Shown in pieces: positions 11,101 to 39,900 of a DNA stretch of 64,000 nucleotides. The translations under genes were made by a program, and so were the position numbers. The DNA is from Candidatus Kerfeldbacteria bacterium (lineage in GTDB: Bacteria; Patescibacteriota; Patescibacteriia; SBBC01; CAIJZX01): NCBI GenBank assembly GCA_963731735.1, contig CAVSWO010000002.1, positions 628,257 to 692,256 on the forward strand, in the 5' to 3' direction. The notes beneath the pieces are model-generated. The model saw nothing but the letters and a program-made list of their open reading frames with translations. It was not told where the DNA came from and ran no database searches. Position 1 is the stretch's first letter, and each line of letters starts with the position of its first letter.

Positions 11101-11107
11101 GCCGTCC

Positions 11108-13233: not shown

Positions 13234-13764
13234 ATGGTATGGCTTGATTGGGTTCTGATTATCGCTTTACTCAGCTACGCTTGGGGCGGTTCACTAACCG
13301 GACTGATTCAATCCATCGGCGGATTGGTCGGGTTGCTGTTGGCGGTGGTGCTGACGCCGCGACTGGCCGGACCGGTGGGGGATTTTTTATCGGTGCTTTT
13401 TGGCGGCAATCATGTGCTGGGCGAAATATTCGCCTTTATTTTGTTGTTCCTCTTGATCACGCGTTTGGTAGCCCTAATCTTTGTGTTCGGAAATCGGGCC
13501 TTTAATTTAGTCGCAATTTTGCCGGGCATGAAATCGCTCAATCGCTTGGGTGGGGCGTTGTTCGGGTTACTTGAAGGTTCGCTTTTTCTCGGCATCCTAC
13601 TCCAATATATCACGCGTCTGCCGTTGAGCTCCGGATTAACCTCCGTCATCCAGGATTCGGTCCTGGCACCGACCTTGATGGGGATTGCTGTTTGGTTAGT
13701 TGCGCTGTTTCCGAAAGCCTTACGTGAAACAACCCGCGTTATCGATAAGGTTGTCCCAAATTGA
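13234..13764 (+). CDS. CvpA family membrane protein
   Basis: Four TM helices, with an AAAAAGGAG RBS 12 nt upstream. Confidence 0.65.
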   Translation: MVWLDWVLIIALLSYAWGGSLTGLIQSIGGLVGLLLAVVLTPRLAGPVGDFLSVLFGGNHVLGEIFAFILLFLLITRLVALIFVFGNRAFNLVAILPGMKSLNRLGGALFGLLEGSLFLGILLQYITRLPLSSGLTSVIQDSVLAPTLMGIAVWLVALFPKALRETTRVIDKVVPN

Positions 13765-14597
13765 AGACGGTCGTATCAACAGCCACGCCGGACCAGCCGA
13801 GTGTCCGATTGATTGATTCCCACTGCCACCCGCAGCTGGCGCAATACGCCGAAGATCGATCGGCCGTCATCCGGCGCAGTTTGGAACAGGGGATTGGCAT
13901 GATCATCGTCGGAACTACGCTCAACGACAGTCTTGAAGCGGTGCGTCTGGCCGAAGCCTATCCGAACCAGCCGGTTTGGGCGGCGGTTGGCGTCCATCCG
14001 ACCGATGGTGATTTAGGCGAAGTTCACCCGGCCCAGCTAGCCGCACTCCTGGACAACTCGAAGACGGTTGCGATCGGTGAAACCGGACTGGATTACTTCC
14101 GGCTGCCACCCGATGATGTGGACACCCGCCAGCTGCAAGCCGATGTCTTCGAGCAACAGTTATTGCTGGCGGCCGAAAAGAATCTGCCGCTGATAATTCA
14201 CACCCGCGATCGGGAGGGAGTGTTCGACGCCTATCAGGACACGCTCACCATCTTGCGTCGGTTAAAGTTTAGCCGGTTTGTGATGCATTGCTATTCAGGC
14301 GACTGGGCGCATGCCGAGCAATTTCTCGATCTCGGCGGCCGGCTTTCCTTCACGGGCATTCTGACATTTCCCAAATCAGAGATGATGCAAGCGGTGGCCC
14401 GGCGGGCGCCACTTGAGAAAATACTGATCGAAACCGACGCGCCGTTCCTGGCCCCGGCTCCGCACCGAGGCAAGCGGAATGAACCGGCCTGGGTCCAACT
14501 GGTGGCGGATAAGCTGGCTGAACTTCGTGATCTCGATGCTGTTCAGGTGGCGACCGCCACGACCGCCACGACCCAGGAATTTTTTGGGCTGTCCTAG
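13761..14597 (+). CDS. tatD: TatD family metal-dependent DNase
   Basis: The sequences IDSHCHP, IGETGLD and HCYSGD are TatD signatures. Confidence 0.85.
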   Translation: MKTVVSTATPDQPSVRLIDSHCHPQLAQYAEDRSAVIRRSLEQGIGMIIVGTTLNDSLEAVRLAEAYPNQPVWAAVGVHPTDGDLGEVHPAQLAALLDNSKTVAIGETGLDYFRLPPDDVDTRQLQADVFEQQLLLAAEKNLPLIIHTRDREGVFDAYQDTLTILRRLKFSRFVMHCYSGDWAHAEQFLDLGGRLSFTGILTFPKSEMMQAVARRAPLEKILIETDAPFLAPAPHRGKRNEPAWVQLVADKLAELRDLDAVQVATATTATTQEFFGLS

Positions 14598-14633
14598 CTT
14601 GCCAGCTGAGCCAAAACCCGCTACCGTAGGGCC

Positions 14634-15710
14634 ATGGATTCCGCACTCTTAACTGCACTCTTCGTTGGTGGTGCCTTTGCCGTAATTGGAATTGTGGCGG
14701 CGGTCCTCATGTTCCAGCGCCTGTCTCGAACTTCCCAATTACTTAAACAGATGAATGACCAGGCGGCGAATAATCCGGCCGCTATGTTGCTGAAAGAGGA
14801 CCTCAAGGCGCTGAACGAACGACTCGACCGGCAATCGGAAAACATGCAGCGTTCCATCCAATCGCAATTTGGCGAAAGCGCCAAGATTATTCGCGATGTC
14901 ACGGAACGCCTGACCAAGTTGGATGAAACGAACCGACAAGTCGTGAGTTTTGCCGATCAACTCAAGCGATTGCAGGACACCTTAAATAATCCGAAACAGC
15001 GTGGCGTGCTCGGGGAGTATTACCTTGAAACCGTTCTCAAAAACGTCTTACCGCCGAAAAATTTTAAACTTCAGTATAAATTCAAGGATGGCGAAATTGT
15101 GGACGCCGCGATATTCTTACAAGACAAAATTATTCCGGTCGATGCGAAGTTTAGTCTGGAAAACTACAATCGCCTAGCCGAACTTTCACCCGGCCCGGAG
15201 CACGAGAAGATTGAGCGACTGTTTAAATCGGATTTGAAAAATCGGATTGATGAGACAGCAAAATATATTCGGCCCGGTGAAAATACCATGGATTTCGCTT
15301 TCATGTTTATTCCGGCCGAAGCGATTTATTATGACTTACTGGTCAATCAAGTCGGGCAGAGTGGTGTCTCGTCGCGCGACCTGATTGATTACGCGTTCAA
15401 AGAAAAACATGTGATTATCGTCTCGCCAACCTCATTCTTTGCCTATCTCCAGACGGTCTTACAAGGCTTACGAGCCATGCAGATTGAGGAAAGCGCCAAA
15501 GAAATCCGGAAGAATATCGAAGTCTTGGCCAAGCACCTCCAGTCGTACGACGGCTACATGCAAAAACTCGGCAGTTCGCTCGGCACAACCGTCAATCAAT
15601 ACAACCTGTCCTATAAGGAATTCAAGAAGATTGATAAGGACGTGGTCAAAATTGCCGAAATTGAAAGTACGGTCGAACCGGTGATGCTAGAAAAACCGAA
15701 CGTAGAATAA
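14634..15710 (+). CDS. rmuC: DNA recombination protein RmuC
   Basis: An N-terminal TM segment is followed by a coiled coil. The C-terminal RmuC nuclease-like region reads IPVDAKFSLENY...FIPAEAIYYDLL. Confidence 0.85.
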   Translation: MDSALLTALFVGGAFAVIGIVAAVLMFQRLSRTSQLLKQMNDQAANNPAAMLLKEDLKALNERLDRQSENMQRSIQSQFGESAKIIRDVTERLTKLDETNRQVVSFADQLKRLQDTLNNPKQRGVLGEYYLETVLKNVLPPKNFKLQYKFKDGEIVDAAIFLQDKIIPVDAKFSLENYNRLAELSPGPEHEKIERLFKSDLKNRIDETAKYIRPGENTMDFAFMFIPAEAIYYDLLVNQVGQSGVSSRDLIDYAFKEKHVIIVSPTSFFAYLQTVLQGLRAMQIEESAKEIRKNIEVLAKHLQSYDGYMQKLGSSLGTTVNQYNLSYKEFKKIDKDVVKIAEIESTVEPVMLEKPNVE

Positions 15711-15711
15711 A

Positions 15712-15745
15712 AAAACGTCCACCCTTAGGCGGACGTTTTGCGACG
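15712..15745. terminator. bidirectional intrinsic terminator shared by rmuC and the convergent gene
   Basis: The hairpin AACGTCC-acccttaggc-GGACGTT has an A-run upstream and TTTTG downstream. Confidence 0.55.
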
Positions 15746-16210
15746 AGCGGGATGAAAACTACTCCCGTGTAGCTGAACTTCGGAACGCAGCTGGTGTAAG
15801 GCGTGCAGCGCGTCTCGCAGCACGATGCTATCGGTCAACTTGTCTGAAACAACAACCACGCGCAGGATCGGGTAGCGTCTTCCTTGAAGACGATAGTGCT
15901 CGTGTTGGGCCTCGAATTTGCGTTGAAAGATCTGACTGCTTTTGACTTGGAGAAACAGAGCGCCCACATCGCTGGTGACGATCAGGTCGATGCCTTGCTG
16001 ATCCTGTGAACGGTTGGCGAACTCAACTTTGTACATCCAGGGCGGACAATGTTCGCCGGTTTCGATGCAGGCGGTCAGGAGTGCGTGCAGGCGCTCTTCG
16101 TTGGCTCGACCCCAAAGCGTTTGATGTCCGTTCACCAGCGACTCAACCGACTGGTTGCCATTTCGTCTCCGACGTTTGCTTTTTCGTACACCATGTCTCA
16201 TTTTGCCCAC
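15725..16210 (-). CDS. hypothetical protein with a possible PD-(D/E)xK nuclease-like core and a basic N-terminus (GTG start)
   Basis: A GGAGGTGA RBS precedes the GTG. The sequence GIDLIVTSDVGALFLQVKSS fits the h-h-D...(E/Q)-h-K pattern. Confidence 0.4.
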   Translation of the reverse strand: MGKMRHGVRKSKRRRRNGNQSVESLVNGHQTLWGRANEERLHALLTACIETGEHCPPWMYKVEFANRSQDQQGIDLIVTSDVGALFLQVKSSQIFQRKFEAQHEHYRLQGRRYPILRVVVVSDKLTDSIVLRDALHALHQLRSEVQLHGSSFHPARRKTSA

Positions 16211-20188: not shown

Positions 20189-21680
20189 ATGGCCGATCAT
20201 CTCGTAGACCTGCTCACCAAGGAACTCAATCATTTTCAAACCAAAGCCGCGCGCGAACTGGTCGGGACCGTGCTAGAAGTCGGCGACGGCATTGTCCGCG
20301 CCGCGGGACTGTCCGACGTGCAGTCCCAGGAAATGGTGACCTTTGAATCCGGCGTCCAGGGCGTCGTCCTTAACTTGGAAGAAGACACTGTCGGGATTAT
20401 CGTGCTGGGTTCAGATATCGGCATTGAACAGAACCAAACCGTCAAAGCCACCGGGAAAATTTTACAGGTGCCGGTCGGCGACGCGGTGGTTGGCCGGGTG
20501 GTCAATCCGCTGGGGTTACCGCTTGACGGCCAGGGCGCGGTCAGCACCAAACAGTTCTATCCGGTTGAAAAAATCGCGCCTGGCGTGATTACCCGTGAAT
20601 CGGTTACCCAGCCGCTCCAGACCGGGATCAAGGCGATTGACGCGATGATTCCGATCGGCCGCGGGCAGCGTGAATTGATTATTGGCGATCGCCAAACCGG
20701 GAAAACCGCTATCGCGGTTGATACCATCATCAACCAAAAAGGCAAAGGCGTCCTATGTATTTATGTCGCGATCGGACAGAAAGAATCAAAAGTGGCCCGG
20801 ATCGTTTCAAAGTTAGAAGAAACGGGGGCGATGGAATACACGACGGTCGTCCTAGCTGGCGCCTCGGATCCGGCCGCCCTGTCCTACATCGCGCCATACG
20901 CCGGTTGCGCGATGGGGGAATATTTCATGGATCAGGGGAAAGACGTGCTGGTTGTCTACGATGACCTCTCGAAACACGCCTGGTCATATCGACAAGTCTC
21001 GCTGTTGCTGCGCCGCCCGCCGGGCCGGGAAGCCTACCCGGGCGATATTTTCTATGTTCACTCACGCCTGCTTGAACGGTCCGCCAAATTGAATAAGGAT
21101 TTTGGCGGCGGCTCGTTAACAGCGTTGCCGATTATTGAAACGCAAGCCGGTGATGTCTCGGCCTATATTCCGACCAACGTTATTTCGATTACGGACGGGC
21201 AGATTTATTTGGAATCGGACTTGTTCTACCAAGGCATCCGCCCGGCCTTGAACGTCGGCCTTATCGGTCTCCCGGGTTGGTTCCGCCGCCCAAACCAAGG
21301 CCATGAAAAAAGTGGCCGGAAAAATCCGGATCGCCTTAGCGCAGTATCGTGAACTGGCGGCCTTTGCCCAGTTCGGTTCAGAACTTGATCCAACCACGCA
21401 GAAACAACTCGATCGCGGCCGCCGGATGACCGAAATATTAAAACAAGGTCAGTATGATCCAATGAGCGTGCCGCAGCAGGTGGCTGTGTTGTACGCCGCG
21501 GCGAACGGGTATCTGGATGACGTGGACCCGGAGCAGATCGGTGCTTGGGAACACGATTTTCATCAATTCCTGGAGCATCAAGCCAGCGACTGGATTCAGG
21601 GCGTGGCTGATGGCGAGCTGACCGAGAAACTTGAAAAACAACTGCAGCAGTTGATTAAAGAGTTTCAGAAAGGACGCTAA
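20189..21680 (+). CDS. atpA: F0F1 ATP synthase subunit alpha, split by an apparent +1 frameshift near 21255-21262
   Basis: ORF 20189..21352 carries the Walker A motif GDRQTGKT and continues as ...RPALNVG. Shifting one base at the 'ggcc' site reads [24 protein letters not shown]..., which continues in-frame into ORF 21303..21680, the conserved alpha C-terminus. Confidence 0.85.
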
Positions 21681-21776: not shown

Positions 21777-24603
<2,827 letters not shown>

Positions 24604-27086: not shown

Positions 27087-30008
27087 ATGCCAGGGGAGAT
27101 TCCGGATAAAGTAAATCGCGAGCAGCAGGCCGCCATTCGCCATGGCCGGGGGCCGCTCTTGATCGTGGCCGGCGCTGGAACCGGGAAAACCACGGTCGTG
27201 ACCGAACGGATTGCGCACCTGATCATGAACGAACAGGTTCCGTCGGACAATATCCTGGCCCTGACCTTTACCGATAAAGCGGCCGGTGAAATGCAGGACC
27301 GAGTTGAGCGGATTTTACCGTTCGGGTATGTCGACCTGTGGGTCATGACCTTTCACAGCTTGGGCCAGCGGCTGCTGAAAGAGCACGCGCTTGATATCGG
27401 GCTGTCCAATGATTTTAAACTCTTATCCCAAACCGACCAGTGGCTGCTGATTCGGGAACATTTGGAAGAATTCGATTTGGAGTACTATCGGCCGCTCGGC
27501 AATCCGACGAAATTTATTTCCGCCCTGGTCCGGCACTTTTCACGCTTGAAAGACGAAGATATTTCACCGGAGGAATATTTAAAGTATGCGAAAACTTTGT
27601 CCAAGGGCAAAACGAAGAAAGCAGCCGAAGACCAGGCCGAAGCCGATCGGATAATGGAAGTCGCGAAGGCCTACCAAAAGTATAATCAGTTGTTACTCGA
27701 CAACAACGCCCTGGATTTTGGCGATCTCATTCTGTATACCTTGCGGCTGCTGCGGGAACGGCCGGCCATCCTGAAAAAGTATCAGCAGCAATTCCAGTAT
27801 ATCCTGGTCGACGAATTTCAGGACACGAACTGGGCGCAGTTTGCATTGATTAAACGACTGGCGGCGCCGCGCAACAATCTGACGGTGGTCGGTGACGATG
27901 ACCAATCAATCTACAAATTCCGCGGCGCTTCGGTTTCAAACATTATAGAATTCAAGAAAGATTTTCCGGAGGCCGAAGTGGTGGTATTAACCAAGAACTA
28001 TCGGACCCAGCAGAAGATCTTGGACCTGGCCTATGCGTTTATCCAGCAGAATAACCCCGATCGCCTGGAAGCCAAGCAGGATTTGTTTGGCGGTCTGTCG
28101 GTCGTCAAGAAACTGACGGCCCAGCGCCCCGGTTCGGGGGAAACCGGCTGGTTGCATCTGGACACCCAGGAAGCCGAGGCTCGGGCGGTGGCCGATAAAA
28201 TCGAAGCTCTGCGGCAAAACGATCCGAAGTTAGGCTGGGACGCCTTCGCGGTTCTGGTTCGCGCCAATGATCATGCCCAATTGTATCTGCAGGAGTTCGA
28301 GCGGCGCGGCCTACCGCATGTATTCCTGGCCGCCCGCGGCTTATTTACGAAACCGTTGGTGCTCGATCTCTTGGCGTATCTGCGTCTGCTCGATAACTAT
28401 CACGAAAGTTCGGCCCTGGCCCGCGTGCTGGCCATGCCAATCTGGGCGATTGATCACGGCGACGTGGTGGAACTATCCTACCAAGCCAAAAAGAAAACCC
28501 GATCGCTGTTTGAGCAGCTCCAGCATGATGATGTTTCGGTATCCGATTCGACGCGCCAAGGCATCCAACGACTGAAGCAACTGGTAGCCGAACACACTAA
28601 AGACGCCAATAGCAAAAAGGCCGGTGAAGTGGTGCTGCAGTTCCTGAATGATTCCGGCTATCTCAAAGCCATGACCAAGGAGGAAACAGCCGAGTCGCAG
28701 CAGCAGACCGCACTGTTGCGGCAATTTTTCAAAGTGATTGAAACCTTTCAGCAGGGCGAAACCCACGCCTCGGTCAAAGGACTGTTGCGATACATTGACC
28801 ATGTGATGGAATCCGGCGACGCCGGCGGCTTGGAACATGATGTCGAGGCCGGCCCTGAGACCATCAAAATCATGACCGTTCACTCGGCCAAGGGCCTGGA
28901 GTTTCCCTACGTTTTTATCGGCAACATGGTCGAGGATCGCTTTCCCGGTCGCGACCGCCACGACCCGATTCCGGTCCCGGACGCCCTGGTCCGCGAAGTG
29001 TTGCCGTCCGGCGACGCCCATCTGCAGGAAGAACGTCGTTTAATGTACGTGGCGATCACCCGGGCCCGGAACGGCGTCTGGTTAACCGCGGCCGAAGACT
29101 ATGGCGGCCAGCGCCGGAAAAAGCCCTCCAAGTTCGTCTATGAACTGGGGTTATTGCAGCCACCGGTCAAGGCCGAAAAGAAGCCGCCGCTGCCGGCTCG
29201 TGAATTCAAACCCACCCCGGTCCAAAAAAAAGAAGCGGCCGCCTACCTGGCCAAGGAAAATCAGTTTAGTTTTACGAAACTCTCAACCTACAACGATTGC
29301 CCCTGGAAATACCGCTACGCCTTCGTGCTACAAGTCCCGAAGCGGGGGAGTCACGCGCTGTCGTACGGATCGTCGGTCCACAAAACCCTGCAGAATTTCT
29401 TCGCCCTTTGGAAGACACGGGAGCCGGCCGGCAAGTCCGTCAGTTTGGACGAGCTGCTGACCTTTTACGATCGCTGCTTCATCGACGAATGGTACTCGAG
29501 CAAGGCCCAGAAAAAAGAATATTACGACAAAGGCAAAGCCGCCTTAACGACCTGGTACAGCCGCGTCAGCAAACAGCCGCCGGAGGTCTTGCGACTGGAG
29601 CAGGTCTTTAATCTGAAGGTCGATGAATTCGTGATCAACGGCGCGATCGATCGGATCGACAAAATCGGCGGCTCGGACGAAAATCCGGAGGTCAAAATTG
29701 TCGATTATAAAACCGGCAAAGTTAAAGAGAAATTCGCCAAGGACGATAAGTACCAGCTCTTGATTTACGCCCTGGCCGTGCAGGATCCGAATATTCTGCC
29801 GGGCGAGGTCAAGCAACTGGAATACTACTTTATCGACGAAAACGTTTCAAAAACCTACCAGCCGACCGAACAGGACCGGACGGATACCCTGGATTGGATT
29901 CGCCAGACGGTCGGTAAAATCCAATCGGGTGATTTTCATCCGACACCCAGTAAATTTATCTGCGACTACTGCGACTTTAAAGAGATCTGCGAATTCCGAG
30001 CAGTGTAA
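27087..30008 (+). CDS. UvrD/PcrA-type SF1 helicase fused to a C-terminal PD-(D/E)xK nuclease with a Cas4/AddB-like 4-Cys Fe-S cluster
   Basis: Helicase motifs are I (AGAGTGKTT), II (LVDEFQDT), III (VVGDDDQSIY) and VI (TVHSAKGLEFPYVFI). The nuclease region reads IDRIDK...VKIVDYKTGK. The Cys pattern is CPWKY...CDYCDFKEIC. Confidence 0.85.
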   Translation: MPGEIPDKVNREQQAAIRHGRGPLLIVAGAGTGKTTVVTERIAHLIMNEQVPSDNILALTFTDKAAGEMQDRVERILPFGYVDLWVMTFHSLGQRLLKEHALDIGLSNDFKLLSQTDQWLLIREHLEEFDLEYYRPLGNPTKFISALVRHFSRLKDEDISPEEYLKYAKTLSKGKTKKAAEDQAEADRIMEVAKAYQKYNQLLLDNNALDFGDLILYTLRLLRERPAILKKYQQQFQYILVDEFQDTNWAQFALIKRLAAPRNNLTVVGDDDQSIYKFRGASVSNIIEFKKDFPEAEVVVLTKNYRTQQKILDLAYAFIQQNNPDRLEAKQDLFGGLSVVKKLTAQRPGSGETGWLHLDTQEAEARAVADKIEALRQNDPKLGWDAFAVLVRANDHAQLYLQEFERRGLPHVFLAARGLFTKPLVLDLLAYLRLLDNYHESSALARVLAMPIWAIDHGDVVELSYQAKKKTRSLFEQLQHDDVSVSDSTRQGIQRLKQLVAEHTKDANSKKAGEVVLQFLNDSGYLKAMTKEETAESQQQTALLRQFFKVIETFQQGETHASVKGLLRYIDHVMESGDAGGLEHDVEAGPETIKIMTVHSAKGLEFPYVFIGNMVEDRFPGRDRHDPIPVPDALVREVLPSGDAHLQEERRLMYVAITRARNGVWLTAAEDYGGQRRKKPSKFVYELGLLQPPVKAEKKPPLPAREFKPTPVQKKEAAAYLAKENQFSFTKLSTYNDCPWKYRYAFVLQVPKRGSHALSYGSSVHKTLQNFFALWKTREPAGKSVSLDELLTFYDRCFIDEWYSSKAQKKEYYDKGKAALTTWYSRVSKQPPEVLRLEQVFNLKVDEFVINGAIDRIDKIGGSDENPEVKIVDYKTGKVKEKFAKDDKYQLLIYALAVQDPNILPGEVKQLEYYFIDENVSKTYQPTEQDRTDTLDWIRQTVGKIQSGDFHPTPSKFICDYCDFKEICEFRAV

Positions 30009-30056
30009 ATGAAACGCAAGAAACCGCGGCGGTTACGCGCTGTTATAGGATGTAAA

Positions 30057-30710
30057 TTATTTTCGCCTCTTCGTCGAACGCTTTGTGTACTTTGCGGGTG
30101 ATACAGTACATACAAAGCTCATCCAATTATTGCCGCCTTCCGATTTCTGGAACTGCTTGATAACTCGGAAACCATGTTCCCGCAGAATGTTCCTAAATTC
30201 ATTTTTGGAATAAAAGGCAAAAAATCTCGTTACACCGCCGTATTTTTCTTGCGTGATTACTTGTTCATCAACATTACTTTTTTCTTTCATCGAAACCACA
30301 AACATGCCTTGCGGTGTTAACAGACGGCGAATAGAACGAAGGACCTTCGGCAGCCGCCTTTTTGGAATATGGAGCAAGGTAGCAATAGACCACACTGCAT
30401 CAAACTGGTGAGCCGGAAAGCGGAGATCATAAAAGCTCATTTTCTTGAATGTGCCCTTTGGATTGAGTTTTTGTGCTAACGCTAAGAGTCCTTTTGAAGC
30501 GTCGGTACCGATGTAGTCAAAACCGGCCTGAAGTAGATCATGTGCGTCTCGACCGCCCCCACACCCGATTTCGAGGACGCGGTTGCCGTGAATTTGGCGA
30601 TGAAGTTCATCCAGTTCATCTTTCCAAAAATGAAACATCCGATTCGTTGTAGCATACTTCGGCGCAATTTTGTCGTAGGCTTCGATTGTTTGTTTTGTGC
30701 GTAAGTCCAT
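30057..30710 (-). CDS. class I SAM-dependent methyltransferase (Methyltransf_11-like)
   Basis: Motif I reads VLEIGCGGGRDAHDL. It is the first gene of the AT-rich island and is convergent with the helicase gene. Confidence 0.75.
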   Translation of the reverse strand: MDLRTKQTIEAYDKIAPKYATTNRMFHFWKDELDELHRQIHGNRVLEIGCGGGRDAHDLLQAGFDYIGTDASKGLLALAQKLNPKGTFKKMSFYDLRFPAHQFDAVWSIATLLHIPKRRLPKVLRSIRRLLTPQGMFVVSMKEKSNVDEQVITQEKYGGVTRFFAFYSKNEFRNILREHGFRVIKQFQKSEGGNNWMSFVCTVSPAKYTKRSTKRRK

Positions 30711-30921
30711 GAGCGAAAATAATTTATTTCCGATAACGTTTGCGCGTACACGATTTTACGTAGTATATCGGGTACGCGCTGTTGTACGGAGTCGGGGTTC
30801 CGAACATTGACAAGTGTCAGGTTCTATGTAAAAGTCTAACACACTTTGTACATTCCCTGGTAGCTTAGATTCAACAGGGCGTTGTTTCTAGGTAGCCATC
30901 GACTCATTAGGAGACATAGCC

Positions 30922-31251
30922 ATGAGTAGTGGTAGTGTCGCCCGACAGGAGCGCGAGTTTCTGGCGTGTGTGATCCGTCATCTCCCAGAGCTTTTTCCAA
31001 ATGAACGGCAGGCGTGGATTGAAAACCAGGATCTTCTGTCCGAAAGGTTGGAGCTAGCCCTGGACATGGTAAGCCCCAGGATCAAACTCCTTGAACGTCT
31101 AAATGAAGGAGTGACGCGCGTCACAAAAAAAGGTCATGCCGCCAAGATAAGACTCTTTCTGTTCAATCTTGGCTCTGAAGACCAAGTGACTGTCGATAAG
31201 CTTGCACGAGCAATCGTTCAAGCTGTTGACCCAGCATCACTCAAAGAGTAG
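30922..31251 (+). CDS. hypothetical 109-aa protein
   Basis: The gene has a TTGACA-16-TAAAAG promoter-like element, an AGGAGA RBS 7 nt before the ATG, and a strong terminator. The product is not recognised. Confidence 0.55.
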   Translation: MSSGSVARQEREFLACVIRHLPELFPNERQAWIENQDLLSERLELALDMVSPRIKLLERLNEGVTRVTKKGHAAKIRLFLFNLGSEDQVTVDKLARAIVQAVDPASLKE

Positions 31252-31265
31252 TGGCACAGATAAGT

Positions 31266-31309
31266 AACGGACTTCGAGATTACATCAACGAGTCCGTTTA
31301 ATTTTTTTA
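31266..31309 (+). terminator. intrinsic terminator
   Basis: The hairpin AACGGACT-(16 nt)-AGTCCGTT is followed by TAATTTTTTT. Confidence 0.7.
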
Positions 31310-31394
31310 CTAGGAACCCCGATTTCGTACAACGTTTGCGTCTCATACGACCGTCTGCCGTAGCAATAGCGAAGGCAGATGTCGTATAGACGCT

Positions 31395-31418
31395 GTTAGG
31401 AGATGTAACAATAGGGTC
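31395..31418. repeat. left copy of the 24-bp inverted repeat GTTAGGAGATGTAACAATAGGGTC
   Basis: Matches the reverse complement of 32072..32095 at 22 of 24 positions. It abuts the stop codon of the kinase gene. Confidence 0.8.
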
Positions 31419-32055
31419 ACTTGGTTAGTAGTTTAATCGCTTTCTTCAGCTGTCCGCTAAAATCGTTGTCCATGTTGAGAACCTTGAATTTGTACTTCCG
31501 CGCTTCTTTATTAAAAAACTGTCCATAGTAACTGACCATTTGTGCGATTTTGTACAAAGTCTTTTTGTTTAAAGTCTTGCGAAGTATCCAATCGTTTGGA
31601 GTTGAGCTTTTCTTTGTATCATGCACAAACTTTTCAATATCAGACTTCACAAGAAAAAGAACGCGGAAATGTTTACCGCCATATTTTTTAATAAGTCGAG
31701 CTGCAAGTTGTGGCGTTATGTGGTAGCCCTCTAGAATGTAGTCATTCCCATCTTTGATTTCAGATATGGCAAACATATCTAAAGCATCATAACTTGCTAC
31801 AGCTTGCTTCATGTAATTTTTGGCAACCCGATGTGGAGTGTTGCGTGAATATGTTTCATCATTTGTTTTACCTTTTTTGGAACTGTGAGGATACAATCTC
31901 GCAAGCGCTTGCTTGGAGACATACTTCGAAACATATTCACGAACTACAACTTGCAGCGTGTCAGAAGCAACCCACTGGATTCCGAGCCCTTTGGACAGTT
32001 TTTTGGCGAGTGTGGTCTTACCACATTTTGGCGGACCACCGATTAAATAAATCAT
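31417..32055 (-). CDS. P-loop NTPase/kinase-fold protein, possibly a nucleoside/nucleotide kinase
   Basis: The Walker A motif is IYLIGGPPKCGKTTLAKKL. Length is 212 aa. The gene is AT-rich. Confidence 0.65.
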   Translation of the reverse strand: MIYLIGGPPKCGKTTLAKKLSKGLGIQWVASDTLQVVVREYVSKYVSKQALARLYPHSSKKGKTNDETYSRNTPHRVAKNYMKQAVASYDALDMFAISEIKDGNDYILEGYHITPQLAARLIKKYGGKHFRVLFLVKSDIEKFVHDTKKSSTPNDWILRKTLNKKTLYKIAQMVSYYGQFFNKEARKYKFKVLNMDNDFSGQLKKAIKLLTK

Positions 32056-32071
32056 AGTTGTGATTCAGCAA

Positions 32072-32095
32072 GACCCTATTGTTATTTCTCCTAAC
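32072..32095. repeat. right copy of the 24-bp inverted repeat (GACCCTATTGTTATTTCTCCTAAC)
   Basis: Lies 17 nt upstream of the kinase start codon. It is the reverse complement of the 31395..31418 repeat. Confidence 0.8.
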
Positions 32096-32265
32096 GTCAG
32101 GGATATACGAAGTTTTGCGACGAAGGAGTAAAATTTGGGTGAGGGGCGAGCCGAGCCCCGAACCGTATGTCCCTTGTTAAGTGACCCGAACGGAATGAAA
32201 TGGAGTGAGAGCGCAGCGGGGCTTGAGTTGAGGATTTGTCCTTCATTATAAAAAAGGGCAAAAAA

Positions 32266-33084
32266 TTATTTTTCAGCAACCCAAAATAATCTGTGACTAC
32301 TTAATTTTATACCTTCCTTGTTAAGTTTTTTATCAACCTCTTCAAGATGTGCCTTGTCTTTCATTTTATCAAAATCTGGAATTATTGGGGCTCTTTCAAG
32401 AATTTCTATAACATCGTTAATTGACGAATACACCTGATGAAATTTAAAGTATTTTGATTCAACGAGTTTCATTCCAGATTGTGCCAATAATTTTTTTACT
32501 AATTCAAGTTTTGTTTTCTGATTAGGATAATTTTGCCCTCTTCTAAAAATTTTTTTGAGTTCGATTTTATCCTTCTCGCCAATAGTTTCTTCAATCATCA
32601 GCCCTCCTTTTTTTAAAACGCGAAAACTTTCTCTAATAAAATCAATGTTGGCAGAAAGGGGTCCTCTTGAGCTGAAAATAATATCAAAATGGTCATCTTC
32701 AAAAGGCAAATTTTTTCCATCTGCAACCTTGAAAATAACATTTTTAGCTTCAACAGATTTTTTAAGTTTATCTGCGGATTTTATGTAATCCTCAAAAGGA
32801 TCAATGCCAACAATTTCTTTAAAAAATGGGGAAAGTTTGAGTGTTAGTTCGCCAGACCCACATCCCAAATCCAATATTTTAAAATTTTTGTTGGCGAATT
32901 TTTTAAGAAACTCAAAAAAATTTGGTTTTTCTCCAGCGATTAATTTACCTTGTCCATGAAGCTCGTATTTTTTAAATTTCGTTGAACTTTTCTTATAAAA
33001 AATATCGTGATGATCTTTCATGTTTGTCTTGTTATTAAATAATTTTTTGCCCCTATATATTTTTGGACAAATCCTCAATTTCAC
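32266..33084 (-). CDS. class I SAM-dependent methyltransferase, very AT-rich
   Basis: Motif I is ILDLGCGSGELTL, and the post-I acidic residue and FEDDHFDIIFS are present. The start may be the internal MKDHH at ~33021. Confidence 0.7.
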   Translation of the reverse strand: MKLRICPKIYRGKKLFNNKTNMKDHHDIFYKKSSTKFKKYELHGQGKLIAGEKPNFFEFLKKFANKNFKILDLGCGSGELTLKLSPFFKEIVGIDPFEDYIKSADKLKKSVEAKNVIFKVADGKNLPFEDDHFDIIFSSRGPLSANIDFIRESFRVLKKGGLMIEETIGEKDKIELKKIFRRGQNYPNQKTKLELVKKLLAQSGMKLVESKYFKFHQVYSSINDVIEILERAPIIPDFDKMKDKAHLEEVDKKLNKEGIKLSSHRLFWVAEK

Positions 33085-33280
33085 TTAACGATTGCGCGTA
33101 GGCGAAGTTCGTCGGTGATACAATCGTACCATCACCGGCGAACTTAGGCGAGCGGTTTCTAGGGGATGGCCTTCGGGCGGCCACAGAAACCCGAGCCGCC
33201 TACGCGCTGTTGTACGATGATTTGCCGACCGCCGCATATGTAAAAGAAAAGCGTGGTTGTCTCCATGTTACCCGACATTC

Positions 33281-33335
33281 TTGACACGAACTAATCCTTA
33301 TGCTATCCTGCTTTGTCAATTCATGGTGAATTGAC
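33281..33335 (+). promoter_or_regulatory. sigma70-like promoter (TTGACA-17-TATCCT) followed by a perfect 9-bp palindrome GTCAATTCA-TGG-TGAATTGAC, a putative operator
   Basis: Read directly from the sequence. The palindrome lies at the predicted transcription start. A GGAGG RBS lies 7 nt before ATG 33358. Confidence 0.55.
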
Positions 33336-33357
33336 TGCTCCTTTCGGAGGTAGAGCG

Positions 33358-33660
33358 ATGCCAGACATTCGCGTGTCCATTCCTCATCGGCTCGGCAAGC
33401 CCGAAGCGCTCAAGCGAGTTCGCACGCTCCTGACGAACGTCAAGCGTGACCATGGTGACCAGGTCAGCAACCTCGAGGAGCGCTGGCATGACAACGGTGC
33501 CAGGTTCAGCTTCAGTACCATGGGCTTCGATGTCTCGGGGCAGCTGACCGTGAGTGACCGAGAAGTCACTGTCACGGGCAAGCTCCCCTGGCTGGCGGGC
33601 ATGTTCAAGGGTCAGATCGAGGACACGATCCGCGATCAGGCCAGCGAGCTTCTCGTCTAG
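33358..33660 (+). CDS. small protein resembling the 'putative polyhydroxyalkanoic acid system protein' family (PHA_gran_rgn-like)
   Basis: The sequence MPDIRVSIPHRLGKPEALKRV...GQLTVSDREVTVTGKLPWLAGMFKGQIEDTIRD fits the ~95-aa family pattern. The track start of 33313 was replaced by the RBS-supported ATG at 33358. Confidence 0.5.
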   Translation: MPDIRVSIPHRLGKPEALKRVRTLLTNVKRDHGDQVSNLEERWHDNGARFSFSTMGFDVSGQLTVSDREVTVTGKLPWLAGMFKGQIEDTIRDQASELLV

Positions 33661-33691
33661 GGCGCTCCAAGGAATCATCTCCGATAACATG

Positions 33692-33730
33692 GGTCCGGGA
33701 GTAGCGATACTCTCGGACCTAGCTTTTCTT
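33692..33730 (+). terminator. intrinsic terminator
   Basis: A 12-bp stem GGTCCGGGAGTA-GCGA-TACTCTCGGACC is followed by TAGCTTTTCTT. Confidence 0.65.
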
Positions 33731-33899
33731 ACAACATAGGGAGGCAAATTTTCGTACAACGTTTCGGCGTAGACGATAGTGGCGACAGCGCGGAGGCGGT
33801 ACACTTTTCTTGACCGCCGGAGCGACGAGCCATTTCGCGTATACACCAGTGCTTTATATGACGTTTCAGTCTGTCTAATCATACTACCAGCCGGTGTCT

Positions 33900-34343
33900 T
33901 CAGTAAAACTTTCCTATACCAATGTTCTCTAGGGCAAGTTTTGTCTTGAGGCAACACATTGACTGGAAGGTTGCCGATGGAAAAACCAGGTGAGAGCATT
34001 CCATTGATCTCCAGGTTCCATATTTGTTCATTTCTACTGTCCATTTATCTGCAGTGAGGTACAATATCAAAGTCATTCTCGATCTGTAGAAAGTCTGTGC
34101 ATGATGTGAACAAGCTTTAACATCCTCAGGTGCAAGTATTATCCCAGCTTCTTCATGAGATTCGCGAATAATAGTCTCTTTTGCTCCGTTGTTTTCGCGA
34201 CCTTCCAGATGACCAGCAACCACACTGTAATTTCCATCTTGATAGCCTGTATTTAATATCTTCGGAGAAGTAAAACTTGCCCATCTTTTTTCAAGGACAA
34301 GATAAGCTGCTACGAAGGCTCTGAACTTTTCTTTGCTGTACAT
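33900..34343 (-). CDS. NUDIX hydrolase, possibly frameshifted near 34050
   Basis: The Nudix box GHLEGRENNGAKETIIRESHEEAGI is present. The overlapping ORF 33316..34044 in another frame reads NEQIWNLEINGMLSPGF, which resembles the usual Nudix C-terminal region. A perfect TATAAT -10 and an ATACGAAC-agag-GTTCGTAT palindrome lie upstream. Confidence 0.65.
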   Translation of the reverse strand: MYSKEKFRAFVAAYLVLEKRWASFTSPKILNTGYQDGNYSVVAGHLEGRENNGAKETIIRESHEEAGIILAPEDVKACSHHAQTFYRSRMTLILYLTADKWTVEMNKYGTWRSMECSHLVFPSATFQSMCCLKTKLALENIGIGKFY

Positions 34344-34465
34344 AAGTTTATTCTCTAACAGACAGAAGACGAAATGCCATATAACTCGTTATTATACGAA
34401 CTCTGTTCGTATCATAGCCCCTCGAGCCGGGTTTGGCCAGAAAAATACTGAATATATTATGCCAT

Positions 34466-34497
34466 AAAGAAAAACCCCACGGACGAAACGCGCGGGG
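34466..34497 (-). terminator. intrinsic terminator downstream of tRNA-Arg
   Basis: On the minus strand, the hairpin CCCCGCGCG-tttcgtcc-GTGGGG is followed by TTTTTCTTT. Confidence 0.55.
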
Positions 34498-34506
34498 TTG
34501 GATGTG

Positions 34507-34578
34507 AACATTGAGTGAGATTTGAACTCACGACCTTCTCCTCCGTAGGGAGACGCTCTATGACTGAGCTATCAATGC
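34507..34578 (-). tRNA. tRNA-Arg (anticodon ACG) with an atypical D-loop lacking GG
   Basis: Manual fold: acceptor stem GCATTGA/TCAATGT (G1-T72 wobble), D-stem GCTC/GAGC with loop AGTCATA, anticodon stem TCTCC/GGAGA with loop CTACGGA, T-arm GTGAG-TTCAAAT-CTCAC. Length 72 nt, with no encoded CCA. Confidence 0.65.
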
Positions 34579-34582
34579 TCTT

Positions 34583-34865
34583 ATTTGATTAGTTCAATGA
34601 ACAGATGAGGTGACGAGCGCTGCAAAGGCAGCAATGGGATGGTTCGTTCGCAACCGCTCCCACCTCTACCAGAAAGGAGGCTCGTCACCAAAAAAGAATG
34701 GAGGGACACGCGGTGGCGTCTCGTGCCGCTGGAAGGATTCCAGGCAGCTTGCGGCCCCTCCAAGGAGCCGGCATGGGGGAATTGCCCGACAAGGCATCCC
34801 GCACAAGCATCATGCTTGCCTCGGTGTTTTTTGCGAGGACACCAGAGCCCATGCCGGAAATGACC
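34583..34865 (-). ncRNA. structured non-coding region of unknown identity
   Basis: No credible ORF. Several long-range complementary segments are present: CCGGCATGGG...CCCATGCCGG, GGTGACGAGC...GCTCGTCACC, CAAGCATGATGCTTG and CTGGAATCCTTCCAG. Confidence 0.3.
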
Positions 34866-34943
34866 GGAAGAAAAGCGAGCAGAGAGCCGAAGCCGGTGTC
34901 TCCAGCAACACCCGTGCCCGGGAACATTGCACGCTCTGCTCGC
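34866..34943 (-). terminator. long terminator-like hairpin following the tRNA-like gene
   Basis: On the minus strand, GCGAGCAGAG...(49 nt with an internal GCTTCGGC tetraloop)...CTCTGCTCGC is followed by TTTTCTTCC. Confidence 0.4.
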
Positions 34944-34948
34944 CAATG

Positions 34949-35060
34949 CGACGGAGGCGGGAATCGAACCCGGATCTCGAGAACTTTCCGTTTCGATCTG
35001 ACCATCTCGAGATCGTGCTGGCTTGGGAAAGCCAGCCTGTACCACACAGCCTCCTCCGTC
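34949..35060 (-). ncRNA. 112-nt noncanonical tRNA-like gene with an 8-bp acceptor stem, 4-bp T-stem and very long extra arm (tRNA-Sec / allo-tRNA-like architecture)
   Basis: Minus strand: GACGGAGG...(A)GGCTGT-GTGGT-ACAGGC / GCTGGC-TTTCCCAA-GCCAGC / a 10-bp extra arm GATCTCGAGA...TCTCGAGATC / CGGG-TTCGATT-CCCG / CCTCCGTC-G. The anticodon loop has 8 nt, so the anticodon is ambiguous. CCC is the likeliest, with U33 and A37. Confidence 0.5.
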
Positions 35061-35111
35061 AATGCTGTTAAGAACCTGGCGCACCGTATCATGCGGGCCG
35101 AAATCAGTCAA

Positions 35112-35143
35112 GACAAAAAAAGACCCCTAGCGGACTAGGGGTC
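35112..35143 (-). terminator. intrinsic terminator of the 35135..35662 gene
   Basis: On the minus strand, GACCCCTAGTCCGCTAGGGGTC is followed by TTTTTTTGTCTT. Confidence 0.6.
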
Positions 35144-35662
35144 GGGATGCTCGAGAATCATACAGGATGCCACGAAGGCGTAACCCGGGTACAGGCTGAT
35201 CCAAGCCTGATCGGCGACTTCGCAAACGAGCCCGAGCCCGCGGTGATCCAGCATGTAGAGTGGCTGGATTGCGCACAGCTGCTTGGGCAGAGCCTGGACC
35301 GTCGGGGCGACCCGATTCCAGGTGAGGATGGTGAAAATGCGGTGCGGGGCTTGACCGCTGACGATCAGCAAGTCGTGCGCCCGGGTTCCGTCCAAAGCGT
35401 GGCGGAGCGAATTTGGGAACAGCTCCAGGGCGGCCAGGGACAGCTTGGCGAAGCAATGCGGTTCCAGCTGCAACGACCGCAGTCGCACGTCAAGCGCCTC
35501 CGACAAAGCATCGATCTGTGCCTGGCCAGCCGGATAAATGAAAGGCCAGGTAACGGATTGACCCAAGCGAACTCGAGCCATGAAGACATGATCGTCGATC
35601 TTGTCGATCAGCATCTTGGTCAGGGGCTCCGGCGGCCCCAGCGGATATTCTGTCGCATGCAC
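35135..35662 (-). CDS. hypothetical 175-aa protein
   Basis: The minus strand is preferred over the overlapping plus ORF 35147..35782 because it ends in an intrinsic terminator and has more protein-like composition. Confidence 0.45.
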   Translation of the reverse strand: MHATEYPLGPPEPLTKMLIDKIDDHVFMARVRLGQSVTWPFIYPAGQAQIDALSEALDVRLRSLQLEPHCFAKLSLAALELFPNSLRHALDGTRAHDLLIVSGQAPHRIFTILTWNRVAPTVQALPKQLCAIQPLYMLDHRGLGLVCEVADQAWISLYPGYAFVASCMILEHPDP

Positions 35663-35760
35663 TGGTGGCCTCCTGAGGTTGGAAGAGCGCGTCTGCCTTG
35701 GGTGTACGCTGTTCCCGACGCGTTGTCAAGCGGCGGTAAAATCAGTATACTCAAGGCCGT

Positions 35761-39177: not shown

Positions 39178-39900
39178 ATGTCGACACATATTGAAATGGG
39201 GATTAATCCCGAAGACGAAGCAGCCGCGGCTTATTATCACCAGGAGTTGCATGACGAAAATCCCGAGGGGCGCGATACGGCGGTTGATGCCTGGTATCAT
39301 CGAAAAGATAAGTTGGCGGAGTATGATTTAGCGGAACTCCGGGCGGTCGATCAAGAATTGTCTGAGATGCCGGAAGTTCGAGAATATGGACATCAGCGAG
39401 TTCGCATAGAAAAAATTGAAAATATGTGTGAAGCGGCGCAAGACTATGTGCCTGAAGAAATGCTCAAAAAGTTCGCTCCGATGGAAACACTGTACGCAGA
39501 TTTGGTCAGTCAACTGCGCACCCAGATTGATCGCTATACCGAAACGCTTCGAAAATTTCACACCTCTGAAGTTTCACGATTTCACATGGATACCGATCGG
39601 TATCAGTCCGTAATGAAATCGGTCGACCGACAACGTCGCTCAGCGCATGAAGTCTTGCTTGATGATTTTCATGCACTTTCCCGATTTCTTACTCAACGAA
39701 TACCAAAAACCGGCGGGTCGGGATTTAATCAGTCCGGTTGGGAAGCCTATCTCAAACAAACGTGGTTTACGATTGATCAATTGAAGGATCGCGACTACCT
39801 GGCCGAGTGGTCAGTCAAGACCGATATCGTTGAAAAAGCCCGCACCTTGCAAGCGGCAATTTCCGCTAGGCTGGAAAAGAAAAGCGCGGAAACGGATTAA
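39178..39900 (+). CDS. hypothetical acidic protein (240 aa)
   Basis: ORF with coherent codon usage. No motif recognised. Confidence 0.45.
   Translation: MSTHIEMGINPEDEAAAAYYHQELHDENPEGRDTAVDAWYHRKDKLAEYDLAELRAVDQELSEMPEVREYGHQRVRIEKIENMCEAAQDYVPEEMLKKFAPMETLYADLVSQLRTQIDRYTETLRKFHTSEVSRFHMDTDRYQSVMKSVDRQRRSAHEVLLDDFHALSRFLTQRIPKTGGSGFNQSGWEAYLKQTWFTIDQLKDRDYLAEWSVKTDIVEKARTLQAAISARLEKKSAETD

Follow-up and report, generated by a model that had tools for sequence, protein, structure and literature searches.

A probable integron-type gene-cassette array, with an attI-like entry site and without an integrase of its own, in a Candidatus Kerfeldbacteria genome

The stretch of DNA that we have analysed, referred to here as "the window", comprises 64,000 nucleotides of a Candidatus Kerfeldbacteria contig (CAVSWO010000002.1, positions 628,257 to 692,256), and its positions 30,005-34,416, located between a helicase-nuclease gene and a tRNA-Arg gene, very probably constitute an integron-type gene-cassette array that lacks an integrase of its own and has kept an attI-like entry site. 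Arrays of this kind are known as CALINs, a term that reportedly stands, after Cury et al. in 2016, for clusters of attC sites lacking an integron integrase. The units of the array bear the signatures of circular permutation and adjoin at G|TT junctions, their hairpins covary, the entry site has an attI-type core, and in related loci such arrays are associated with a divergent IntI-like recombinase. By the operational definition, a CALIN has at least two attC sites and no integrase, with a reported average of six sites (PMC9024848); the window contains four strong sites, one decayed site and one truncated terminal site, 0.6-1.0 kb apart and all on one strand, and thus falls within this definition. 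A preliminary description of the same DNA had held that this combination of genes could not be assigned to a described system, a view that the assignment to an integrase-less, integron-type cassette array now replaces. The top strand of the array is the minus strand of the window, along which the attI-like site is followed by six cassettes of 0.6-1.0 kb, each listed below with its open reading frame (ORF), its attC-like site and the inverted repeats at its ends:

34374..34416, minus strand: attI-like site, with the crossover G|TT at 34385/34384.
33760..34384, minus strand: cassette 1 (GC content 0.429), with a Nudix-like ORF (33900-34343, minus strand); decayed attC-like site at about 33754-33857 (covariance match 33748-33865, 16 bits, E = 0.28; R'' mutated to TAAAGCAC); end inverted repeats 33854-33874 with 34358-34384.
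33089..33759, minus strand: cassette 2 (GC 0.557), with a reversed PHA_gran_rgn ORF (33358-33660, plus strand); attC-like site 33083-33215 (covariance match 33077-33221, 52.7 bits; hairpin z = -5.2); end inverted repeats 33209-33226 with 33743-33760.
32095..33088, minus strand: cassette 3 (GC 0.332), with a very AT-rich class I S-adenosylmethionine (SAM) methyltransferase ORF (32266-33021, minus strand); attC-like site 32089-32183 (covariance match 32083-32188, 78 bits, E = 6.6e-15), with an extra 5' hairpin ahead of it at about 32184-32235; end inverted repeats 32228-32285 with 33023-33078, plus GTTAAGTG/CACTTAAC.
31333..32094, minus strand: cassette 4, with a P-loop kinase ORF (31417-32055, minus strand); attC-like site 31327-31401 (covariance match 31321-31407, 52.8 bits; hairpin z = -5.5); end inverted repeats 31395-31418 with 32072-32095, 92% complementary.
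30737..31332, minus strand: cassette 5, with a reversed orphan ORF of 109 aa (30922-31251, plus strand); attC-like site 30731-30787 (covariance match 30725-30793, 41.9 bits, outside the training set; hairpin z = -2.8); end inverted repeats 30781-30801 with 31313-31333, 90% complementary.
30005..30736, minus strand: cassette 6, the distal one (GC 0.442), with a class I SAM methyltransferase ORF (30057-30710, minus strand); truncated attC-like site with R'' at 30042-30049, abutting the stop codon of the helicase-nuclease gene at 30006-30008 (marginal covariance match 29992-30054, 9.3 bits; weak fold, z = -0.9); end inverted repeats 30042-30066 with 30713-30737, 88% complementary.
34506-34578, minus strand: tRNA-Arg(ACG), found by ARAGORN and Rfam, which lies outside the array, at its boundary.

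The six units share a single form, 5'-TTAnnnGAAAT…ORF…ACATCnnnTAAC-[imperfect hairpin with the conserved stem TATRCGG/TCGYATA]-AAAC-G-3', and the motif GTT[AG]nnnG.AAT occurs six times on the same strand, with its G at 34385, 33760, 33089, 32095, 31333 and 30737. A repeat finder has revealed that each gene is bracketed by an inverted repeat of its own, 18-25 nt in length (38 nt in the case of the AT-rich methyltransferase), which opens with GTT… and closes with …AAC; in each unit, the initial 18-25 nt complement the sequence directly ahead of the unit's own hairpin. A circular integron cassette that has been opened at G|TT carries TTnnnn at its 5' end and its own R''-L''-loop-L'-R' at its 3' end, and the complementarity between the start and the end of each unit is thus what would be expected if the unit had once been a circle closed at G|TT. 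The GC content of the cassettes ranges from 0.33 to 0.56, which fits independent origins. Four of the ORFs are co-directional with the array, while each of the two reversed ORFs has an upstream TTGACA box, as expected, since a reversed cassette needs a promoter of its own. The proximal and the distal attC-like sites are decayed, i.e. the array is probably in part fossilised.

The attC-like sites have been compared by means of a covariance model built from 42 sites, 41 of which come from other genomes and one from the window; its E-values are rough. Within the 64 kb, strong matches occur only on the minus strand of the array (E from 7e-15 to 6e-7), with marginal matches at its two ends and no credible match elsewhere in the window. 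The lengths of the sites, measured from R'' through the full 7-nt R' box, are 57, 75, 95 and 133 nt; every one of them has AAC and GTT, and the R' boxes GTTAAGT, GTTAGGA, GTTGTAC and GTTATCG are a loose fit to GTTRRRY. Three of the hairpins fold far better than shuffled sequences (z = -2.8, -5.5 and -5.2). In an alignment of 150 sites, which has been fitted to the covariance model and therefore favours the structure, 96.1% of the cells of the 12-bp inner stem are paired, compared with 74.4% in shuffles, the covariation score is 0.531, compared with 0.12 in shuffles and 0.03-0.12 for slid partners, and double changes are found in 9 of the 12 inner-stem pairs.

These sites belong to a larger family. 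A locus from another genome, L003 (the loci compared with the window are numbered with the prefix L), contains eight sites in one orientation, of the form …ACATCnnnTAAC-A-nnnnnTATRCGG…TCGYATAnnnnn-(A)AAC-G|TTAnnnGAAAT, and a stringent two-gap pattern derived from them has matched at least 118 loci among species-representative genomes; these loci are mostly from Patescibacteria, i.e. the Candidate Phyla Radiation (CPR), with some from metagenome-assembled genomes (MAGs) labelled as DPANN archaea or as other phyla, labels that may be wrong owing to possible binning errors. Sites of about 95% identity are seen in MAGs labelled as many CPR phyla, as DPANN and other archaea, as Gammaproteobacteria and as Bacteroidetes (e.g. 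L010, L016, L019, L022, L043, L048, L054, L056 and L083), which reflects either a very wide and recent exchange of cassettes or the mis-binning of small contigs.

Complementarity between a cassette's own ends extends beyond the 7-nt core: among 41 cassettes, 11 exceed the 99th percentile of non-own pairs and 16 reach the 95th, and in most of the 41 the first 8-9 nt of the cassette are the reverse complement of its own R''. The outer pairing is broken by a conserved double mismatch, with GAAAT at the 5' end and ACATC at the 3' end, which may serve as a strand marker located outside the R box; to our knowledge, classical attC sites do not show such extended outer pairing. The spacer is asymmetric and constant (A on one side, AAAC on the other). 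In many sites of the "CGGGGCGTATAAC" class, the cassette-end repeat is interrupted by a further conserved hairpin, …GCCCCGCTGCGCTCTC…TCGGGGC, located immediately upstream of R''; this hairpin is found in the window at 32184-32235, in L002 at about 7815-7870, in L003 at about 5540-5560, and in L024.

The boundaries of the cassettes are also apparent from the comparison of arrays with different contents. In two loci of one metagenome, L002 and L003, the kinase ORF together with its downstream hairpin is 99.6% identical, while the flanks differ; the neighbours of the kinase cassette in both arrays are entirely different from those in the window. The kinase and methyltransferase cassettes of the window are about 81-83% identical to copies in the arrays of other metagenomes. 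All three copies of the kinase cassette start with GTTAGG(A/T)GAAATAACAATAGGGTC and end with GACCCTATTGTTACATC…TAAC. The methyltransferase of cassette 3 is 83% identical in L096, an array that holds none of the window's other five genes; there the homology begins at G|TTAAGTG, and the site upstream is unrelated. For the kinase and the methyltransferase cassettes alike, the homology breaks exactly at G|TT. Furthermore, the site at 32079-32179 of the window is 92% identical to positions 6898-7000 of L003, where it is located behind a creatininase gene.

The block that is shared by L002 and L003 shows that each hairpin belongs to the ORF located upstream of it in the sense direction, and thus that the top strand of the array is the minus strand of the window. 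Accordingly, the longest ORF is found on the R''…R' strand in 39 of 41 decidable cassettes from many loci (p = 8e-10). The opposite orientation, i.e. an array on the plus strand, had been suggested by the bulged bases of the site at 31327-31401, and has been overturned by the L002/L003 block and the 39 of 41 ORF orientations: either the plus-strand reading is wrong, or the textbook rule does not apply to these bulges. In this conflict, the comparative evidence has been weighted more heavily.

The breakpoints at G|TT also bear on the proposal that the intergenic elements are structured RNAs, or repeats resembling repetitive extragenic palindromes or miniature inverted-repeat transposable elements, that act as processing or termination signals between ordinary, variable genes. 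The high conservation of even the unpaired stretches (e.g. TCACCCAAATT) would suit such elements, as would the G·U-type wobble that 144 of 150 sites share on the sense strand; the proposal, however, leaves unexplained the homology breakpoints at G|TT, the complementarity of the two ends of a cassette, and the constant presence of a divergent recombinase gene with a related core site. The attC sites are transcribed in any case, so that an RNA-level side effect is compatible with a cassette array as well, and we consider that RNA signals or repeats are extremely improbable as the whole explanation. At gathering threshold, Rfam has matched only the tRNA in the window, and the attC-like sites match none of its families.

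The sequence of the attI-like site on the minus strand is GATACGAACAGAGTTCGTATAATAACGA|GTTATATGGCAT; it consists of a short hairpin or left arm, ATACGAAC-AGA-GTTCGTAT, the centre TAACGA, and a right arm formed by the beginning of cassette 1. Its core, at 34386-34413, reads GATACGAACAGAGTTCGTATAATAACGA|GTTATATGG and fits nTTCGnATAnAAACGA|GTTAnnnG.AAT, the consensus of 11 of the 15 recombinase-bearing related loci examined; over the 16 nt up to the crossover, the window and L102 differ only at the first base. The core is located about 120 nt from the 3' end of tRNA-Arg, without an adjoining recombinase gene, and the same core is found in L002 behind a mechanosensitive-channel gene, with no integrase adjacent and not beside a tRNA; both the window and L002 are thus arrays that have an entry site and no adjacent integrase. 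The distal end of the L002 array (13408-16030) carries transposase genes of the IS110 family (DEDD) and of an IS30-like type (rve).

The absence of the array from related genomes supports its interpretation as an insertion, i.e. as horizontally acquired accessory DNA. In five syntenic relatives, with helicases that are 73-78% identical to that of the window, the order of the genes is ATP synthase, (FabH), helicase, membrane protein, PheS, PheT and GyrB, and the gap between the helicase and the membrane protein is variable and only 0.4-2 kb long; this gap contains no cassettes, no match to the site model and no tRNA-Arg, and no empty attI has been found at the syntenic position. The preliminary description had likewise inferred horizontal acquisition, and had named the occurrence of the enzymes as housekeeping genes beside this tRNA in related genomes as an observation that would speak against it; the enzymes are not conserved at this spot in the relatives. 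In two of the relatives, the gap holds a small ORF that resembles GIY-YIG by eye (MKTYYVYILRCADGSYYTGVTNN…; L122, about 3754-4400, and L123, about 10985-11640), and in L125 it holds a tRNA-Ser (11115-11207).

As for the other two arguments that had been raised for acquisition, the composition holds and the tRNA does not. The computed profile confirms an AT-rich stretch next to tRNA-Arg, with a GC content of 0.30-0.47 at 30.0-33.2 kb and 33.8-34.6 kb and of 0.55-0.61 in the flanks; the mean of the array is 0.432, while 700-nt windows elsewhere in the 64 kb average 0.545 +/- 0.030. The stretch is AT-rich overall and not throughout, as the PHA_gran_rgn cassette reaches 0.557 and its ORF 0.607. 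The proximity of the tRNA is incidental: there is no integrase, no tRNA-derived repeat of at least 11 nt elsewhere in the window, the far end of the array included, and the L002 array is located behind a different gene. An island that integrates into tRNA genes, for its part, has been rejected for the lack of an integrase and of a tRNA repeat. Downstream of tRNA-Arg, at about 34468-34500, a hairpin with the stem AACCCCGCG…GGGGTT is followed by a T-run, TTTTTC.

In order to account for these features, we propose that the attI-like site would have taken up the cassettes one by one, each as a circle whose attC-like site was folded and recombined with attI in a site-specific manner. An IntI-related tyrosine recombinase would have catalysed this exchange; its gene may be located elsewhere in the 822-kb genome or may since have been lost, or the enzyme may have been provided in trans. 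By what is known of integrons, insertion would proceed by attI x attC and excision by attC x attC, with the attC partner in the form of a folded single strand, and the TTCGTATA-type box that occurs in attI, in L' and, as its complement, at the 5' ends of the cassettes may be, by analogy, the element to which the recombinase binds.

A candidate for such an enzyme is found next to the related arrays. A tblastn search of about 120 loci, each spanning 8 kb around related sites, has identified 16 full-length recombinase genes and several partial ones, and in 16 of the 16 loci with a full-length gene the gene is divergent from the site array; the order of divergent gene, attI and array is the canonical intI/attI/cassette layout. 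An attI core, TTCGNATA…|GTT, is located 57-149 nt from the start of the recombinase gene in 11 of the 15 loci examined, with an inverted ATACGAA copy ahead of it and, in many cases, additional copies of TTCGTATAA, while other sequence is located upstream of the first GTT in L015, L110, L054 and L088. The link between the recombinase and the arrays is one of association.

The related recombinases are 262-297 aa long and are found across CPR lineages. They satisfy the R-K-HxxR-H/W-Y pattern of tyrosine recombinases and match the XerA and IntI models over their full length; the catalytic-type motifs GLRVSE, KGSKDR, HSLRHSF, LGH and IYTH are visible in the alignment with the integron integrase VchIntIA (PDB ID:2a3v), which is the best match in the PDB, at 150 bits, ahead of the archaeal XerA (138 bits) and of XerD (82 bits). 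The best-scoring NCBIfam models are NF040815 ("tyrosine recombinase/integron integrase"), at 202-249 bits against a cut-off of 220, which 5 of 10 proteins pass, and the integron integrase model TIGR02249; the XerC and XerD models score 160-204 bits, lower than the integron-integrase models. Judged by these scores, the associated recombinase is closer to IntI than to Xer, though it lacks two of the traits by which IntI is defined. The family comprises more than 7,700 clusters, and its public names are inconsistent, XerD being frequent among them. In the Gracilibacteria locus L024, the recombinase ORF (6507-7355) contains five in-frame stops in translation table 11, which would be explained if UGA were a sense codon (genetic code 25).

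It is on the nature of this enzyme that a different interpretation may be built, namely that the ~270-aa protein is a Xer-like dimer resolvase with a dif-like core next to its gene, and that the cassettes are modules comparable to integrative mobile elements exploiting Xer (IMEX) or to Acinetobacter pdif modules, possibly recombined at double-stranded core sites. The enzyme has no IntI insertion, half of the tested proteins score above the cut-off of the XerA-type model NF040815, XerD is a frequent name for the enzyme in public sources, and the Xer-related recombinases of candidate phyla form a "Cand" subgroup that is presumed to replace Xer (PMC8138268). The attI core can also be written as two inverted 9-nt arms around a 7-nt centre, e.g. 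TTCGTATAA-AAACGAG-TTAAACGAA, where 8 of 9 positions match by eye; the arms match at 5-8 of 9 positions across loci, by the same reading, with the right arm being the start of the first cassette. The 3' half of attC together with the start of the next cassette is collinear with the attI core, and difSL, located beside xerS, offers a parallel for a site beside a recombinase gene. The scores, however, favour IntI, both among the profiles (TIGR02249 at 196-233 bits versus 160-204 bits for the Xer models) and among the structures (150 bits for VchIntIA versus 82 for XerD). The central regions vary from site to site, a variation that is not tolerated in classical double-strand exchange; covarying hairpins with a cassette-specific complementarity of R'' and R' are the signature of folded single-strand substrates; and tandem arrays of 5 to 10 or more co-oriented single-ORF units that diverge from a recombinase gene follow the integron layout. 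We therefore regard a system of the Xer/dif type as unlikely.

Several observations nevertheless weigh against the assignment of the array to the integrons. With regard to the enzyme, no recombinase has been detected within the 64 kb, either by Pfam searches of the likely ORFs of at least 180 aa or by tblastn with IntI1 and XerD probes, which are approximate sequences used only for locating genes; this leaves 30 kb on either side of the array without a recombinase, and none of the top 120 homologues of the L102 recombinase comes from the window's 822,872-bp contig. An adjacent divergent intI, the mark of a complete integron, is thus absent from the window and present in 16 related loci if a recombinase without the insertion is accepted as such. 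The ten tested recombinases of the related loci score 196-233 bits with the integron integrase model TIGR02249, under its cut-off of 265, and match it in two stretches that omit roughly the profile positions 180-236; in the alignment with 2a3v, residues 178-240 face 20 residues of the query, i.e. about 43 fewer, so that the IntI-specific insertion is missing. The additional domain around patch III is held to be defining and necessary for integron integrases (PMC9668308, PMC8138268).

With regard to the sites, the label "attC-like" is derived from our own covariance model and the anatomy of the sites, not from the attC model of IntegronFinder, and several features depart from the textbook attC: the sequence is strongly conserved, with some sites about 95% identical across differently labelled phyla; the spacer is asymmetric (1 nt versus 3-4 nt); and the pairing reaches 10-18 nt outside the R box. 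Clear bulged bases occur only in the site at 31327-31401, on the arm that suggests the opposite strand. In 144 of 150 sites, the stem has a G·T wobble as its innermost pair, which would also suit a function at the level of RNA; it may mark the strand that folds, or may have such an RNA-level role. On the complementary strand, this wobble (columns 27/177 of alignment A3; e.g. the CGG…TCG closing pair of the site at 32089-32183) is a C·A mismatch.

The contents of the cassettes are heterogeneous. The six ORFs of the preliminary description are present where it had placed them, and its assignment to families is for the most part upheld by Pfam and NCBIfam, i.e. for the two SAM methyltransferases, the P-loop protein and the PHA_gran_rgn protein, while the match of the ORF in cassette 1 to NUDIX falls just below the cut-off (20.3 versus 21.1 bits). 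The Nudix-like protein has no match among PDB chains at E <= 0.01, and aligns along its full length, at 37% identity, with an ORF of the L047 array; indel errors of the assembly, of which the apparent frameshifts in atpA and atpG are a hint, could also have affected the 3' end of the Nudix-like ORF. The PHA_gran_rgn protein, of 100-115 aa, is matched by Pfam PF09650 (E = 5.9e-16). The methyltransferase of cassette 3 matches Methyltransf_31, 25 and 11, and that of cassette 6 Methyltransf_25, 23 and 11 in Pfam; both are, by these matches, generic class I SAM enzymes. The former had been given as 32266..33084: the gene is real, though its likeliest start is the ATG at 33021 (251 aa, as in the public record) and not the GTG at 33084.

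The P-loop kinase (212 aa) has weak matches only, to AAA and to 2-phosphoglycerate-kinase-like models of Pfam and NCBIfam, and its identification as 2-phosphoglycerate kinase has been rejected (NCBIfam, 38.9 bits against a cut-off of 343). Its sequence has returned nothing useful from PDB chains; its AlphaFold2 model, with a predicted local distance difference test (pLDDT) score of 93.8, has been matched by Foldseek only to generic adenylate, gluconate and shikimate kinase folds (template modelling score of about 0.5), so that the predicted fold is that of the nucleoside monophosphate kinases. Its homologues in CPR lineages number 530, with identities of up to 82%. Outside the window, the same 822,872-bp genome encodes a second copy of the cassette kinase, protein P0065, 69% identical, which may mark a second array. 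The 109-aa protein is essentially an orphan, with no match in Pfam or NCBIfam, two chance-level matches only in the PDB (E = 0.33), and two distant relatives among 1.84 billion representatives.

Such a set of genes had been taken for a self-contained module of nucleotide or nicotinamide adenine dinucleotide salvage or modification, co-functional and individually regulated, on a tRNA-linked island. A kinase, a Nudix protein and two methyltransferases can indeed be imagined in one pathway, and the AT-rich stretch beside the tRNA is absent from the relatives. Every gene, however, is a separate cassette with its own ends and its own GC content (0.33-0.56), and the kinase and methyltransferase cassettes recur elsewhere among unrelated neighbours, without the other five genes. 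Nor is the proposed regulation borne out: near-consensus promoters had been described for each gene, and sigma-70-like matches number 8, compared with 7.8 +/- 2.7 in shuffles; a clean intrinsic terminator had likewise been described for each, and terminator-like sites number 6, compared with 4.7 +/- 2.0. A convincing promoter (TTGACA-17-TATCCT, 33281-33309) and terminator (33690-33721) are found only for the PHA_gran_rgn gene. The palindromic, operator-like sites of that description are, by repeat finding, folding and the covariance model, the attC-like recombination sites and the inverted repeats of the cassette ends. Its statement that no integrase or transposase is present stands, since neither a tyrosine recombinase nor a transposase has been found by the Pfam and tblastn searches described above; there is no tRNA-derived direct repeat either. 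PADLOC, by which known defence systems were also to be excluded, reports generic domain matches only: a methyltransferase (mad2) and the helicase, which matches GajB-type UvrD models; a defence system has accordingly been rejected. The six genes are unrelated cargo without a functional link, and the salvage module is already largely refuted and, in our estimate, very improbable.

In most respects, the array resembles the sedentary chromosomal integrons and CALINs: its cassettes are arranged in tandem, 0.6-1.0 kb long, mostly with a single ORF and mostly co-oriented; its sites are imperfect palindromes of 57-133 nt, bounded by …AAC and GTT…, with the junction at G|TT; R'' matches the 5' end of its own cassette; there is an attI-type entry site, and the sites are six in number; in related loci, the recombinase gene diverges from the array; and the cargo is of heterogeneous GC content and of unrelated functions. 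In contrast to them, the host is of the CPR type, the inner stem TATRCGG/TCGYATA and the loop motifs are strongly conserved, the ends pair for 10-18 nt beyond the 7-nt core with the GAAAT/ACATC double mismatch, and the recombinase, of about 270 aa, has no IntI insertion. The integrase criterion of IntegronFinder would presumably miss such a recombinase.

A second comparison is offered by the archaeal integrons, described by Ghaly et al. (2022) from MAGs of small-genome lineages that include DPANN; these are mostly CALINs, with an attI that is semi-conserved across phyla and attC sites that are shared across domains (PMC9668308). Our pattern scan has likewise matched MAGs labelled Woesearchaeota, Micrarchaeota and Altiarchaeota, and one of the loci from archaea-labelled MAGs, L054, has a recombinase and five sites. 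The archaeal IntIs were, however, required to have the IntI-specific domain (PMC9668308), while the recombinases described here are without it.

With Xer/dif and the elements that exploit it (XerS/difSL, IMEX of the CTX-phi type, Acinetobacter pdif), the array has in common a simple, Xer-like recombinase and a palindrome-like core beside its gene. CTX-phi also makes use of folded single-strand hairpins that mimic the core site. The arrays differ from these systems in that their recombinase is nearer to the integron integrase than to XerC, XerD or XerS, and in that they consist of many single-gene units, each with unique complementary ends; the conserved 28-bp sites in alternating orientation that characterise the pdif modules are not seen here. 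Finally, the array is similar to a tRNA-linked island in being located beside a tRNA gene, in its atypical GC content and in its absence from relatives, and is dissimilar to it in having no integrase, no repeat of the tRNA 3' end and no single acquired block.

Our search of the literature on integrons and cassette arrays in CPR, Patescibacteria and Parcubacteria has returned resistome surveys only, and no description of such elements. We tentatively propose, with somewhat less than even confidence, that the array is one case of a large, undescribed integron-like lineage in CPR and possibly DPANN, with an IntI-related recombinase that lacks the insertion, recognition through the TTCGTATA-type box, and a strand marker that has been shifted outside the R box; the evidence for an integron lineage without the insertion is associative, and its sites have been compared by a model other than that of IntegronFinder. 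If such a distinct lineage exists, its elements would be reported only as orphan attC clusters or would be missed; it could be an evolutionary intermediate between Xer/dif and the classical integrons, and, given the near-identical sites in MAGs of many phyla, it could be a main route of gene exchange among ultra-small symbionts.

For this stretch of DNA, a speculative salvage module is replaced by a concrete anatomy of six independent cassettes, an entry site and exact junctions. If such arrays are widespread in CPR, as the at least 118 loci and more than 7,700 recombinase clusters suggest, the capture of cassettes would be a major route to accessory functions. With their tiny genomes, CPR bacteria are believed to rely on hosts and on the exchange of genes. 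If the recombinase works without the IntI-specific domain, the definition of the integron integrase, which is also the detection rule of the standard software, needs to be widened, and many of the "CALIN" arrays of MAG surveys may be complete elements. The conserved sites could in addition serve as handles for the polymerase chain reaction, by which cassettes could be recovered from CPR-rich environments.

Some further observations concern the rest of the window. The genes of the ATP synthase subunits alpha (20189-21680) and gamma (21777-22710) each appear to be broken up into two ORFs that overlap in different frames (387 aa and 125 aa, and 226 aa and 150 aa, respectively), which are either frameshifts, pseudogenes or indel errors of the assembly. 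The GC-rich 1.2 kb between tRNA-Arg and the membrane-protein gene (34579-35760) is without a Pfam-annotated gene; it contains an ORF of 175 aa (35135-35662, minus strand) with a 28%-identical counterpart at the syntenic place in L122 and L123, and this ORF is, judging by that counterpart, probably a real gene. A second, milder dip in GC content (0.45-0.50) coincides with a gene of the DUF3232 family (39178-39900), which is found at the same place in L123 and L125; since it has no attC-like site and its position is conserved, it is not another cassette.

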